Made by a program: the position numbers and the translations under genes. This document shows, one piece after another, positions 2,863-38,159 of a stretch of DNA of 38,159 nucleotides (the first letter of the stretch is position 1; every line of letters starts with the position of its first letter). A model generated the notes under the pieces. It searched no databases and was not told where the DNA came from. It worked only from the letters and a program-made list of their open reading frames with translations. This stretch comes from a virus (Duplodnaviria; Heunggongvirae; Uroviricota; Caudoviricetes). The DNA is taken from IMG/VR virus record IMGVR_UViG_3300045988_123528, positions 1 to 38,159 of that record. One strand, given 5' to 3'.

Positions 2863-3668
2863 TTCACCTCTTGTGATGGTTTTGCTGCAAAATACTCGAT
2901 ACCTTTATCCCAGATAGATTTTATGGTCGACCACGTGACTGGCACTTTAATTTCAATACGTCCGCTCCCGTCACAGGTATCGCAATCATCATCGCCAAAG
3001 CATTCCAGGCAGCTTATAAACGTAGTTTCTGAAAATTCACCGGATAGCGCCCCCTTAGCGCCGTTCTCGGCTGTTAGTCTCTTCGGCACCATAACCCAAC
3101 CATCCGGAGTTACCGGAGAGTTGCCAGACAGTGCGTTCTGCAATCGTTCCAGCTTAACGTATTCCTGAACCCTGTTTCCGTCGCACGCCTGAAGCCATTG
3201 CACAGCCTTTTGCGCATCAGTGTGAAAGGCACAAGTGCGACCGTCATCAAATTGCATTTCGTAGAGGTCAGCAACCTGTTTAAACTGCGTTTGTGGCAAC
3301 TTGTAAGCCTGGCTTGCAGGTACGGCACCATAGAGCATGGCAGCGCGGCAGGCGTTCCAGCCTTCATCAAAACCGACTATGCCATTATTTAAAGACGGAC
3401 GAGCATCTGGCACCACCGGCACTGGCTTGGCTATATATAGCGGCTGAACATACCAGCCCTTTGATAACCAACTGTCAGCAATGTTTTTACTCCTGGTTAT
3501 TGCCGGAATACCTAAGCCATTGTCTGAATGCAGCCATGCCACCGGATCCTCTTCCAGCGATGCCAGAGCAATTTCATAAGCACGGCGCTCAACATTGTCT
3601 CGCACGTCCATGCTGCTGATTCGTTCTTTGATTTCTTTAATCAGTTCTTTATCGGTAAATGTGGTCAT
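2859..3668 (-). CDS. Hypothetical phage protein with C-terminal CxxC-x5-CxxC zinc-ribbon motif
   Basis: 269 aa ORF in operon context; CLECFGDDDCDTC near C-terminus. Confidence 0.5.
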   Translation of the reverse strand: MTTFTDKELIKEIKERISSMDVRDNVERRAYEIALASLEEDPVAWLHSDNGLGIPAITRSKNIADSWLSKGWYVQPLYIAKPVPVVPDARPSLNNGIVGFDEGWNACRAAMLYGAVPASQAYKLPQTQFKQVADLYEMQFDDGRTCAFHTDAQKAVQWLQACDGNRVQEYVKLERLQNALSGNSPVTPDGWVMVPKRLTAENGAKGALSGEFSETTFISCLECFGDDDCDTCDGSGRIEIKVPVTWSTIKSIWDKGIEYFAAKPSQEVK

Positions 3669-7046: not shown

Positions 7047-7700
7047 TCAAAAATCCATTATTACTTGTTTGACAAGACCAACTATTCTGCAGTTCTCACC
7101 GCATTCAATAGTTTTATAGTTAGGATTTAGTGGGACGAGATACCTGTTCGGCCAGTCCTCAACAAATTTTTTGAGTGTCGCTTCTTGCCCACCATTGATA
7201 TGGGCAACAACGATTTTTCCGTTAATACACTCTGTATCAATAATATCTGGCTCTACGATAACGATAGAACCTTCTGGTATCGATGGTGAGCCGAGGGGAT
7301 TGGTCATTGAATCACCACGGACCCGTAGTGCAAATGCCATTTCTGATACAAGGGCGGTAGTATAAACCCACTCTTCAGCATCTTCTTTCCTGACACCAGG
7401 CTCCGTCATTGTCCATGAACCCGCCTGAACCCACGAGATGAGGGGGACTTTTTTAACTGCGAATATTTCAGGTTTTAGATTTATCTTTGGTTCAGGCGAG
7501 CCTTTTCCGCTAACAAGCCACAGAGGATCGCATTTAAGTGCGTTGGCTAGGGCTTGAAGGTTGGCTCCATTTGGTTGGTAGTCGTCCTTTTCCCATCCAG
7601 TAACCGTGACACGGTTCACACCAGTCAAATCAGCCAGTGCTTGTTGTGTCAGGTTCAGTTCTTTTCGCCTTTGGCGAATACGATCACTCATGTTCATCAT
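7047..7700 (-). CDS. cI: CI-type prophage repressor (N-terminal HTH, C-terminal S24 LexA-like peptidase)
   Basis: HTH LTQQALADLTGVNRVTV; Ala-Gly site (VQAGSW); GDSM Ser and LKKF Lys of the S24 dyad. Confidence 0.85.
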   Translation of the reverse strand: MMNMSDRIRQRRKELNLTQQALADLTGVNRVTVTGWEKDDYQPNGANLQALANALKCDPLWLVSGKGSPEPKINLKPEIFAVKKVPLISWVQAGSWTMTEPGVRKEDAEEWVYTTALVSEMAFALRVRGDSMTNPLGSPSIPEGSIVIVEPDIIDTECINGKIVVAHINGGQEATLKKFVEDWPNRYLVPLNPNYKTIECGENCRIVGLVKQVIMDF

Positions 7701-35091: not shown

Positions 35092-35118
35092 AAACGCCCC
35101 TTATGGGGCGTATTTTGC
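35092..35118. terminator. Bidirectional terminator between tail genes and the acyltransferase
   Basis: ACGCCCC TTAT GGGGCGT hairpin plus T-run; overlaps the acyltransferase stop. Confidence 0.7.
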
Positions 35119-36270
35119 TGCTTGCACGTTATTCTTTGGAAGAATTTTATTTGATAAATAATTGGAAAATTTTATCGCGTTATCATCAATTAGCAATTTA
35201 AAAATTAAAGCTGCAAGTATTGAAGATAATAAAGTGATTGGGAAAGTAATAAGTAAAGACTTTCCGTATGAAACTCCTGCATCACCAAGCTTAATTACGA
35301 TCAAAGAAGATATTGAAGCTATTAATGGAAAATGCACCAGATAAAGAGAGTATGATACATCTCCAAGAAATTTACAGGTTTTTGTTTTGAATAAATTTGA
35401 GATAACTATTGATTTATCAATTGCTATAATAAGAAACATTGAACCAAAGGCTTGAGAAACAATTCTCAAATCAAAGTAAGTTATGTCACTGTTATTTATC
35501 CAGATACTATGTTCAGTTATAAAATATGGGTATGAACCTAGGTAACATCCTAGTAAAATAAACATAAAGATAATTGTGGTATTAATTTTCTTTATATTAA
35601 CTGAAACATCTGCACAAATCACCCCTAATATAAATCCTATTAGATGACTTGAGCTAAATACCACAATACCTAAAGTATAAAAAGCAAACCTAATTCTGGT
35701 AGTGCAAACTAGTGGGACCAGAACGAGTACAAGAATTGAGCCAACCAATTCGGTGTGAATGGTCCATAATACTGGGTTTAATGTTTGAACTCCGTAAAAA
35801 TATGTACCAATACCCCCTTCCCATACCGCATTCAGTAATGTCATTGTAGTTGGCATCGCTGGGATTACTTGTGATAAAGAGTACACTGCAGTTTCTGATG
35901 AATGAAATCCAATCGTTGTCATCAGAATAAAGGAAAATATAGTAGATGCAATGGTAGGTATTGCAAGACGTGGGTATCTCTTGATAATGGATTTAGAGTA
36001 CCATTCTAGCCCCTTCCCTTTGAAAAAGGGAATCGATAGAACCATTCCACTCAAAACGAAGAAAAGCATTACGGCAAAGTGACCATTATATAATATATTA
36101 AATGGAGTTTCACTTATGTATTTCTCTCCATAATGATCTATCTGATTTTGAACAAAAACAGATGGTAGAAAGAATTGCATGAAATGGCTTATTAAAACTA
36201 TCAAGCAAGCTATACCACGAATACCATCCAGTGCGTGATCTCGGGAAGGCGTCGTTAATTGTTGAACCAT
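35101..36270 (-). CDS. Acyltransferase family 3 integral membrane protein (OafA/Oac-like)
   Basis: LDGIRGIACLIVLISHF N-terminal motif and many TM segments; AT-rich relative to the rest of the prophage; SD GAGGA before this ATG. Confidence 0.8.
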   Translation of the reverse strand: MVQQLTTPSRDHALDGIRGIACLIVLISHFMQFFLPSVFVQNQIDHYGEKYISETPFNILYNGHFAVMLFFVLSGMVLSIPFFKGKGLEWYSKSIIKRYPRLAIPTIASTIFSFILMTTIGFHSSETAVYSLSQVIPAMPTTMTLLNAVWEGGIGTYFYGVQTLNPVLWTIHTELVGSILVLVLVPLVCTTRIRFAFYTLGIVVFSSSHLIGFILGVICADVSVNIKKINTTIIFMFILLGCYLGSYPYFITEHSIWINNSDITYFDLRIVSQAFGSMFLIIAIDKSIVISNLFKTKTCKFLGDVSYSLYLVHFPLIASISSLIVIKLGDAGVSYGKSLLITFPITLLSSILAALIFKLLIDDNAIKFSNYLSNKILPKNNVQAAKYAP

Positions 36271-36512
36271 CAATTCCTCACACATTGTAATAAAGTATTA
36301 AAATAAAATAGTAAAAGCAGAATATACAAATACGAAAAGCGGAATTATACTTTACAAGAGTGCTTGATGCTATTGTTTTGTCGAGATTTATAATCTGATC
36401 TTCTGTAGATGTTGTCCTGGCATTGTCCAATCATGATCTATGGGCTGGCTGGCGAACTTTCGATAGTGCGAGTATTGAATGATTTCCAGCCGTTACCGAT
36501 TTTACGTGTTAA

Positions 36513-36761
36513 TTAGTGAACAAACCACTCGTCAGCAGATTCCCAGGTATCTTTCAGAGTCTCCTGAACAAAAGTTTTTGCAGAATCCTTATCTGCGGTG
36601 CGTGTAACAGAAAGGCCATCGTTGCTGGTGGCTTTTACGATCACCTCTACATCGTCATAACGTTTACTGATGCGTCGGGTTAATTCTTCCTTTAACGCAT
36701 CCACAGCACCGGTTGGCATTTTAGTCATTTTTTCTTTGGCTATGCAGATTTCAATACGCAT
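36513..36761 (-). CDS. DinI-like protein
   Basis: 82 aa; MRIEICIAK...[11 protein letters not shown] closely matches DinI; SOS boxes in promoter. Confidence 0.85.
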
Positions 36762-36773
36762 AAAAGTCCCTCT

Positions 36774-36825
36774 ATACTGTGTTTGTATACAGTATTATTT
36801 TTAACTGTATGGATAAACAGTGTCA
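36774..36825 (-). promoter_or_regulatory. SOS-regulated promoter with two LexA boxes
   Basis: TACTGTGTTTGTATACAGTA and AACTGTATGGATAAACAGTG (CTGT-N8-ACAG); minus-strand TTGACA-17-TAAAAT; coordinates +/-2. Confidence 0.75.
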
Positions 36826-37920
36826 AGAGGTCTTATTTCTGCTCCTTTGGAGCTCTTCAAAACGATTATGTAAAGATTTCGGATACAGTTCGGTATATAC
36901 CTGCCATAGCACGTTTAATGAACGATGCCCTGTAACCTGGGCGACTTCCTCAATACTAAAACCAGCCTCAAATAAGCGACTTGCCCCTTCTCTACGCAAA
37001 TCATGGTATCGCAGATCTTTAATACCTAATTTGCTTCTTACCCTCTGGAATCCCGCAGTAACAGAAGTGCTGTTATATGGAAAAATGAATTCTGATTTTT
37101 TGGGTTGTCGTTGGACGATATCCCAGGCTTCCCCAAGCAAGGCTACTTTCATATGGTTGCCTTCCTTTTTACGTGGATCTTTCCTGTCTCTTACGAGTAT
37201 GGATTTTTGTTCCTGATCGAGATCCTCCCATCGTAATCGGCATACTTCACCGATTCGCATACATGACCACACAGAAAATTTGAGGATATCAACGAACGGA
37301 ATTTTTGAGCATTTATGTGTAGATCGTTGTTGAAGACCTTCAATGAGCATGTCCAGTTCATCAGATGCCGGTCTACGATTACGACGATTTGATTTACCAA
37401 TTAAACCAAGTTTAAGTAGATATGGACGAGCGGCTTTTGCTGGGTTTGATGTGTAATTAATTCCATATACAGGTTTGGCAGCATCCAGAACACTACCAAG
37501 ATAACTAACATCGTGGCTAACTGTAGCTGGACCTGCACCAGCGTTGTTTCTTAGCCTGCAATGTTCAATTACGTCATTTTCTGTCAGTTCAGATAGTTTG
37601 ATCGCGGAGATGTCACTATCCATAAGCAGTTCCAGCACATATCTTTTAGTACGGCCTGCTTTACCTCCGGCATTTGGGTCATTTAAATATTTGTGTAGTA
37701 AGTCACGGACTGTAAGTCCGTCAACTGCATTTGATGATGGAATGCCATATAGATCTAATTCCATCACTTTCTGTGTGCCCCATGTTTTGGCATGAGCATG
37801 TTTAGGGAATGTTTTGCTTTCCCTGTAAGTGATAACACCTTTTTCTTTGATAATCACATTACAGCGATAGCGTGGTGTGCCATCGGATTTTAGTCGTTTC
37901 TCTATGTTATAGTACGCCAT
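36823..37920 (-). CDS. int: Tyrosine integrase (dusA-associated integrase type)
   Basis: 365 aa; catalytic R..HDLRR..H...Y motifs; adjacent to the dusA junction. Confidence 0.9.
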   Translation of the reverse strand: MAYYNIEKRLKSDGTPRYRCNVIIKEKGVITYRESKTFPKHAHAKTWGTQKVMELDLYGIPSSNAVDGLTVRDLLHKYLNDPNAGGKAGRTKRYVLELLMDSDISAIKLSELTENDVIEHCRLRNNAGAGPATVSHDVSYLGSVLDAAKPVYGINYTSNPAKAARPYLLKLGLIGKSNRRNRRPASDELDMLIEGLQQRSTHKCSKIPFVDILKFSVWSCMRIGEVCRLRWEDLDQEQKSILVRDRKDPRKKEGNHMKVALLGEAWDIVQRQPKKSEFIFPYNSTSVTAGFQRVRSKLGIKDLRYHDLRREGASRLFEAGFSIEEVAQVTGHRSLNVLWQVYTELYPKSLHNRFEELQRSRNKTS

Positions 37921-37939
37921 TACACGACCTCGTTATTTC

Positions 37940-37976
37940 GGGTTCCCATAAAACGTGGGAACCTGTGCGGGAACCT
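37940..37976. repeat. Putative integrase arm-type sites next to attR
   Basis: GGGTTCCC, GTGGGAACCTGT and CGGGAACC clustered; the 11-mer is shared with the attL side. Confidence 0.4.
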
Positions 37977-38008
37977 AACGCGAGAAAAATAGCCTGAAAT
38001 GTTCAAAA

Positions 38009-38159
38009 ATGCACGATAATCATGAAACACAAAAAATTAATCAAACCAGCGTGATGCCTGAAAAAACTGGTGTTTACTGGAATTCTCGGTTTAGCATTGC
38101 TCCTATGCTCGACTGGACGGACAGACATTGCCGCTATTTCTTGCGTCTGCTTTCCCGCA
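38009..38159 (+). CDS. dusA: dusA 5' end (partial; continues beyond the window), phage-supplied replacement
   Basis: [50 protein letters not shown] is the conserved DusA N-terminus. Confidence 0.8.
38086..38112. repeat. attR core region
   Basis: Same TCGGTTTAGC...ATGCTCGA segment as attL. Confidence 0.5.

Follow-up and report, generated by a model that had tools for sequence, protein, structure and literature searches.

We analysed a tailed-phage sequence of 38,159 nucleotides (Caudoviricetes; IMG/VR record IMGVR_UViG_3300045988_123528, positions 1 to 38,159, hereafter called the window), focusing on a small gene resembling the Escherichia coli dinI gene and on the regulatory sequences located upstream of it. 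According to the RefSeq annotation, the window corresponds to one complete prophage inserted in the 5' end of dusA; its head is of the HK97 type, its tail contractile and its early region lambdoid. In the genome comparison, the stretch 36300-38159 was 100% identical to E. coli chromosomes, e.g., that of strain WP4-S18-ESBL-09. At this right end the genes follow each other on the minus strand in the order acyltransferase, DinI-like gene, tyrosine integrase and dusA (Table 1). The dinI-like gene and its control region form a cassette that sits beside the acyltransferase gene, among the accessory genes extending from the tail fibres to the integrase.

LexA boxes and predicted promoter of the dinI-like gene

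The core motif of the LexA operator, CTGT-N8-ACAG, has exactly two matches in the 38,159 bases, at 36777-36792 and 36805-36820, 28 bp apart and both just upstream of the dinI-like gene. Shuffled versions of the window contained 0.42 such matches on average, and two or more anywhere in 6 of 100 shuffles. We scored the corresponding 20-nt sites, the proximal and distal boxes of Table 1, with a matrix that we derived from 24 published LexA boxes of E. coli (those of lexA1, lexA2 and uvrA/ssb were found exactly in fetched E. coli DNA). With the same matrix, the boxes of recA, sulA and the chromosomal dinI obtained 23.4, 23.1 and 22.7 bits, respectively, all 24 known sites spanning 12.5-28.2 bits. 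The third-ranking site of the window reached 9.5 bits, so that the two boxes exceed it by 12-14 bits, and the best site per shuffle had a mean of 11.1 bits and a maximum of 19.0 (30 shuffles). With two strong boxes followed by a site of 9.5 bits, there is thus one plausible LexA target in the prophage, and none in the immunity region. The initial annotation had proposed two consensus LexA boxes at about 36774-36793 and 36803-36822. Both do exist, with perfect cores and with scores in the range of known sites, and the coordinates of the second one were exact, those of the first being off by one base.

The two boxes overlap a predicted promoter that agrees with the sigma-70 consensus at 10 of 12 positions in a consensus scan. 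The distal box occupies the spacer between the -35 and -10 elements; the proximal box comes after the -10 element and before the Shine-Dalgarno sequence, its end being 13 nt from the ATG. The promoter had been given initially as TTGACA-17-TAAAAT; the TTGACA hexamer, the overlap with the boxes and, as one possible register, the 17-nt spacing were confirmed, and TAAAAT turned out to be a miscount of the five A's of TAAAAAT. The upstream box indeed abuts the integrase stop codon, as had been noticed, since the TGA occupies 36825-36823 and the distal box ends at 36822. This arrangement supports the view that the promoter is organised like one repressed by LexA, its boxes being placed where they would block RNA polymerase. 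We thus found in the sequence what is characteristic of a LexA regulon member: operators scoring in the known range, their overlap with the (predicted) promoter and their conservation in front of orthologues (see below). From these features, binding of LexA to the window copy and its induction by DNA damage are very probable.

Table 1. Position of the features discussed in the text (coordinates in the window)
Feature	Position	Strand	Remarks
LexA DNA-binding-domain-only (LexA-DBD-only) protein, 108 aa	11083-11409	+	Pfam LexA_DNA_bind, 69 bits; PHROG 362; between Dam methylase and RusA
Acyl_transf_3 family acyltransferase	35101-36285	-	394-aa open reading frame; RefSeq start 36270; 227 bp downstream of the dinI-like gene
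Conserved 3' flank of the cassette	36443-36512	-	Homology with mEp460, VT1-Sakai and 2H10 to ~36443
dinI-like coding sequence	36513-36761	-	82 aa, stop codon included in the coordinates; Pfam DinI, PHROG 189, fold match
Shine-Dalgarno AGAGGGA	36767-36773	-	5-6 nt before the ATG; read from the sequence; purine-rich block here in relatives
Proximal LexA box (predicted)	36775-36794	.	TACTGTGTTTGTATACAGTA, minus-strand reading TACTGTATACAAACACAGTA; 17/20 to consensus; 23.4 bits
-10 region TAAAAAT	36797-36803	-	17-nt spacer if read as TAAAAA, 18-nt spacer if read as AAAAAT
Distal LexA box (predicted)	36803-36822	.	AACTGTATGGATAAACAGTG, minus-strand reading CACTGTTTATCCATACAGTT; 15/20 to consensus; 22.0 bits
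-35 hexamer TTGACA	36821-36826	-	Promoter scan; contains the integrase stop TGA (36825-36823); upstream edge of the mobile cassette
dusA-specific tyrosine integrase	36823-37920	-	Pfam Phage_integrase; dusA next in the annotation; directly upstream of the dinI-like gene, same strand

The initial description of the gene product (82 amino acids, aa) as DinI-like was borne out by profile and structure comparisons. The protein matched the Pfam DinI profile (PF06183) over all its positions (1-63 of 63) with 70.9 bits for a cutoff of 24.2, and the PHROG 189 profile, 'RecA filament binding protein DinI', with an E-value of 5.7e-31, filling positions 71-149 of 151. It shares 49% identity with E. coli DinI. 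The AlphaFold model (predicted local distance difference test, pLDDT, 79) comprises the elements E2-8, H19-34, E39-45, E49-53 and H58-80, i.e., the beta-alpha-beta-beta-alpha fold of DinI with its long C-terminal acidic helix. Foldseek aligned this model with the structure of DinI obtained by nuclear magnetic resonance (1GHH) and with that of DinI on the RecA filament (7YWA) with template modelling (TM) scores of 0.79-0.82 and a probability of 1.00.

Cryo-electron microscopy of the RecA-DinI complex has shown that L13, L21, W71, W77 and F78 of DinI form a pocket for F203 of RecA, that E24, E69 and D76 form an acidic patch, and that mutating each of these RecA-contact residues impairs filament stabilisation (PMC9926225). 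In our alignment the equivalents of the five pocket residues are M15, L23, W73, W79 and F80, and those of the acidic patch E26, D71 and E78. Five of the eight contacts are thus identical (L21, E24, W71, W77 and F78) and the three others are conservative replacements (L13 to M, E69 to D and D76 to E). Because the fold matches and the contact residues are kept, we infer with good reason that the protein would bind in the groove of the filament, and we consider binding to the RecA filament likely.

Three E. coli proteins also named 'DinI-like family' (P0001-P0003), of 108-112 aa and 70-75% identical to the query, scored 198-208 bits, when near-identical relatives of 82 aa scored only 166 bits. 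That they outscore closer relatives points to an extension of P0001-P0003 or to a partial duplication within them.

Mobility of the cassette and conservation of its predicted control

The homology between phages begins at the -35 hexamer and stops 70 bp beyond the stop codon, which defines a cassette at 36443-36826; between phages with different neighbours, it ends just upstream of the TTGACA hexamer. The cassette adjoins the same integrase in mEp460, SKA5 and Lys8385Vzw, and it is found beside other integrases, attachment sites or effector genes in VT1-Sakai, BP-4795, 2H10, CP-1639 and many Stx1a, Stx2a and Stx2c phages. A copy covering at least 80% of the cassette was present in 1,612 of 5,426 complete E. 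coli genomes (~30%), the maximum being nine matching places per genome. A predicted promoter of its own and its occurrence in unrelated phage contexts, with different integrases, attachment sites and tail genes, are the properties of a 'moron'. A terminator of its own was not recovered, since we detected no intrinsic terminator after the dinI-like gene, either by a consensus scan or by RNA folding against shuffled sequences (z = -0.5).

The 3' flank of the cassette is a remnant of the spacer that leads, in other phages, to a ykgJ-like second gene. This gene is missing after the cassette of the window, where unrelated A/T-rich DNA runs from 36442 downward to the acyltransferase gene. A query spanning the junction at 36443 was matched in full at 99.9-100% identity in 6 of the genomes listed, and in 715 genomes a place covered 80% or more of it.

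Most E. coli chromosomes also contain a fossil that has no annotation and shares about 87% identity with the final ~58 nt of the dinI-like gene and the downstream spacer. In E. coli ESY002, for instance, it occupies positions 3001-3125 of the fetched locus (L167), matches 36446-36570 of the window, and lies between ecpE and ykgJ, directly upstream of the latter, a core gene. This fossil in front of ykgJ and the YkgJ-like gene that follows the dinI-like gene in VT1-Sakai point to a shared ancestral dinI-like-ykgJ unit. RefSeq reports in the same spacer an incomplete 'capsid protein' pseudogene (36445-36516, plus strand). We rejected this call as a probable mis-annotation; it looks spurious because these positions belong to the conserved spacer that follows the dinI-like gene and that precedes a ykgJ gene both in VT1-Sakai and at the chromosomal ykgJ locus.

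The LexA boxes were conserved well beyond close relatives of the window. We fetched 80 loci of the DinI family from a one-genome-per-species set of Enterobacterales, together with a few mislabelled assemblies; 79 of them were usable. At least one LexA box of 15 bits or more was recovered within 120 bp upstream of the gene in 72 of these 79 loci, for an expectation of about 0.004 per region by chance. The seven others were one truncated open reading frame (ORF) and six Yersinia genes. In five of the six Yersinia loci (L108, L119, L138, L148 and L154), no box was present within 150 bp and a strong one (20-27 bits) was found about 300-420 bp upstream. At L108, the sole Yersinia locus that we translated, an ORF of ~90 aa separates the box from dinI, an order that resembles the split tum arrangement of phages PSP3 and Fels-2.

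In most dinI genes of the chromosomal type there is one box, whose start is at -38 or -39. The nearest clade to the window gene, recognised by the N-terminus M-R-I/V-E-I-C/S-I-A-K-E-K, usually has two, at about -61 and at -33 to -35, and this two-box layout was present in Escherichia, Shigella, Trabulsiella, Mixta and Erwinia. The TAAA-rich block at -10 is also kept in the relatives. Among 56 near-identical viral contigs, corresponding to 22 distinct upstream sequences, both boxes were kept in all cases. Across the 18 variants that aligned in register, all 16 CTGT/ACAG core positions were invariant, whereas 12 of the 49 other positions from the -35 element to the ATG varied (one-sided Fisher p = 0.023). 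The comparison shows that predicted LexA control, often by two operators, is a family-wide and selectively maintained trait of dinI genes, whether they are chromosomal or phage-borne.

Some features of the prophage outside the cassette deserve mention. At the integrase end, the prophage supplies a replacement for the 5' end of dusA (window ~38009-38159, plus strand), and its other end (~362-466) carries a 105-bp dusA fragment annotated as a pseudogene, a configuration typically seen with dusA-specific integrases. At the far-left end, immediately within the attachment site, the annotation shows a Panacea-domain protein gene and a small adjacent ORF (~720-1292), which may represent toxin-antitoxin or defence cargo. 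An Rfam scan of 36000-38159 returned nothing above chance.

Proposed mechanism and alternative explanations

Altogether, these data make it probable that the locus is a self-contained, SOS-inducible accessory cassette, or moron, carried at the integrase end of a dusA-inserted E. coli prophage. In an undamaged lysogen, dimers of host LexA would sit on the two strong operators, one in the spacer that separates a perfect -35 hexamer (TTGACA) from an A/T-rich -10 element and the other over the region of the transcription start, and together these operators would hold RNA polymerase off. After DNA damage, activated RecA would trigger the self-cleavage of LexA and the promoter would open, independently of the phage CI repressor. 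The resulting 82-aa paralogue of DinI would then bind in the groove of the RecA-single-stranded DNA filament through its hydrophobic pocket and acidic patch, as host DinI does. Once bound, it would stabilise the filament and compete with further proteins that bind the groove, such as UmuD, LexA and phage repressors of the S24 type.

The prophage itself encodes such a repressor, a CI-type protein (7047-7700, minus strand) with an HTH_3 domain, a Peptidase_S24 domain (88 bits) and the motifs QAGS (QAG/S) and GDSM. From this domain and these motifs, self-cleavage assisted by activated RecA is to be expected, so that a RecA modulator would be relevant in principle. Phage-made DinI could act in one of two ways, by making the inducing signal last longer or by competing with CI. 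A measurable effect on the induction threshold of the prophage is a speculative and rather doubtful prospect, and the proposal of the initial annotation that the prophage tunes the cleavage of its own CI is likewise speculation. As several copies of the cassette are present in many E. coli strains (up to nine places), the total dosage of DinI-type RecA modulators after damage could vary widely from strain to strain, and this variation might affect SOS mutagenesis and the induction of prophages with cleavable repressors, Stx phages included.

Several observations weigh against this interpretation. Depending on how the -10 element is read, it misses the A at position 3 or else its last T, which makes the basal strength of the promoter uncertain. 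The protein obtained 73 bits with the NCBIfam equivalog for true DinI (NF007893), below its cutoff of 111; it is therefore a paralogue rather than a true DinI orthologue, named 'DinI-like family protein' by RefSeq, and its activity could differ from that of DinI. The two boxes are not helically phased and their spacing varies between 24 and 29 bp among relatives. We considered helical phasing as a sign of cooperative binding and rejected it, as the spacing in relatives tracks promoter geometry; because the spacing is unphased and variable, cooperative binding of LexA cannot be assumed. Finally, in the only known genetic test of a prophage dinI, deletions of the dinI homologues of the Salmonella Gifsy prophages produced no detectable change in induction (PMC3121763). 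This last result transfers only weakly to the window, because the Gifsy phages use antirepressors and not repressor cleavage.

The same Gifsy deletions agree with the possibility that the cassette only benefits the host, the additional DinI helping the lysogen to survive damage through stabilised RecA filaments and damped UmuD processing and mutagenesis, with no role in the choice between lysis and lysogeny. The position of the cassette among accessory genes, its movement between unrelated phage backbones and its frequency in complete E. coli genomes, in several places of the same genome, fit this explanation too. It departs from the SOS-inducible cassette proposed above only in the beneficiary, and we regard it as possible but somewhat unlikely.

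A more elaborate alternative involves the LexA-DBD-only protein encoded in the early region (Table 1). This protein is 43% identical to residues 1-86 of LexA and keeps S39, N41, A42 and E45 of the recognition helix, which we take to be the residues of LexA that contact the bases. It has 'LAGE' aligned to the A84-G85 cleavage site of LexA, and the S24 catalytic domain is missing. Based on this alignment, it could plausibly bind the two boxes of the dinI-like gene. One could thus imagine a two-part device managing the SOS response of the host. The DinI paralogue, made only after LexA cleavage, would settle in the groove of the RecA filament and filter the damage threshold for cleavage of the S24 repressor of the prophage and of those of other prophages in the same cell. 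Once induction has switched on the early-right region, the LexA-DBD-only protein expressed from it, unable to cleave itself without a catalytic domain, would re-occupy the LexA boxes, among them the two described here, shutting off host SOS genes and the dinI-like gene again during lytic growth.

The gene for the LexA-DBD-only protein was found in 59 phage records among the matches listed, including SfV, SfII, SfIV, mEp460, cdtI and Stx2c phages; we found no functional study of the protein in the literature searched. At least 48 records of Stx1a- or Stx2a-converting phages carry the dinI-like gene, and none of them appears among the LexA-DBD matches listed. The idea that the two genes travel together was rejected, their overlap being partial and due to shared phage lineages, and each also occurring alone among the matches listed. 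Because they occur independently in phages, the partnership is only a hypothesis, and the teamwork between the two proteins suggested in the initial annotation is speculation. A two-part device seems improbable.

The LexA-controlled promoter might also mainly serve a longer transcript reaching the acyltransferase gene, whose product resembles O-antigen-modifying conversion proteins, in which case O-antigen modification would be damage-inducible. The two genes are on the same strand, and between them the consensus scans detected neither an intrinsic terminator nor a minus-strand sigma-70-like promoter. However, a perfect TATAAT preceded by a weak -35 element can be read by eye in the gap (36286-36512), the junction at 36443 is specific to few genomes (the 6 full-length matches mentioned above), and the downstream neighbours of the cassette differ in other phages. 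Read-through into the acyltransferase gene is thus possible but unsupported, and we give this explanation little chance of being correct.

It is very unlikely that the locus is an induction module of the Tum or Gifsy type, in which a LexA-controlled unit delivers an antirepressor inactivating the repressor of the phage and DinI is a passenger or a fused domain. Such modules do exist: Tum of phage 186, a LexA-controlled antirepressor, has a DinI-like second half, and in the Gifsy prophages a LexA-controlled dinI-antirepressor-irsA operon begins with dinI (PMC3121763). Moreover, the PHROG 189 profile is 151 positions long, of which the window protein covers only the second part, and an ORF lies between the LexA box and dinI at the Yersinia locus L108. 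However, the 82-aa protein consists of the DinI domain only, and the ORF list contains no antirepressor candidate of at least 30 aa on the same strand within 80 bp downstream of the dinI-like gene. Furthermore, the downstream partner in other phages is YkgJ-like and not an antirepressor, and the S24 repressor of the window phage, being self-cleaving, would not need one.

Chance palindromes in A/T-rich intergenic DNA, although two core matches somewhere are not exceptional in shuffled sequences (6 of 100), are an extremely improbable explanation for two motifs 28 bp apart, located on a promoter in front of a gene of a LexA-controlled family, scoring 12-14 bits above anything else in the window, conserved across genera and invariant in their cores among close variants.

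Comparison with known systems

The closest counterparts of the cassette are those of VT1-Sakai (AP000400, gene H0001), mEp460, Lys8385Vzw, 2H10, CP-1639 and Stx1a, Stx2a and Stx2c phages, whose proteins are 95-100% identical to that of the window. They share the same layout, i.e., TTGACA, distal box, TAAAAAT, proximal box, Shine-Dalgarno sequence and ATG, and the cassette likewise occupies the prophage end that carries the attachment site or the integrase. In the GenBank record of VT1-Sakai, H0001 (95% identical) already has an annotated promoter and 'putative SOS box', and the record of mEp460 marks the promoter. Only the proximal box is annotated in VT1-Sakai, whose distal box is weaker (CTGG, 16 bits). 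In VT1-Sakai the dinI-like gene is followed by the YkgJ-like H0002, whereas the window has the acyltransferase region instead.

The Salmonella prophages Gifsy-1, -2 and -3 provide the experimental precedent. Their dinI homologues have a LexA box ~19 bp from the ATG and are LexA-regulated and damage-induced (PMC8072944, PMC3121763), with a 5- to 23-fold increase under nalidixic acid (PMC8072944). The Gifsy-2 homologue accumulates after mitomycin C, and replacing the region of its LexA box by araC-PBAD abolished damage-dependent induction of the prophage, which lexA3 also blocks (PMC3121763). The Gifsy genes, however, have one box and head an operon with an antirepressor and irsA, in phages with non-cleaved repressors. 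The window differs in having two boxes, a cleavable repressor of the S24 type and no antirepressor.

Chromosomal DinI of E. coli (1GHH; RecA complex 7YWA) shares with the window gene the fold, the conserved RecA-contact residues and a promoter under LexA control, predicted in the case of the window. Compared with it, the window protein contains two extra residues after K9, lacks two in the beta-hairpin and carries less net negative charge, and the E. coli gene has one principal box, at -39, instead of two. A second, very weak box (HI 17.6) has been reported for the chromosomal dinI of Salmonella (PMC8072944). In Tum of coliphage 186 and in the split tum of PSP3 and Fels-2, a LexA-repressed promoter drives a DinI-like polypeptide (PMC3121763); Tum has an N-terminal antirepressor half that the window protein does not have. 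Further cases have been described in PhiKO2 and Serratia OS31 (PMC7556043), and the dinI-like gene c0943 of E. coli CFT073 co-varied with sulA, umuD and recN (PMC2817434).

The SOS-controlled dinI-like cassette is thus an already known, well-supported and mechanistically conventional system, correctly re-discovered here. As a discovery it carries little weight, and it confirms a common E. coli prophage cassette as a member of the SOS regulon. The small additions of the present analysis are the conserved second LexA box in the promoter spacer, the LexA control predicted for nearly the whole DinI family and the boundary of the cassette at the -35 hexamer.

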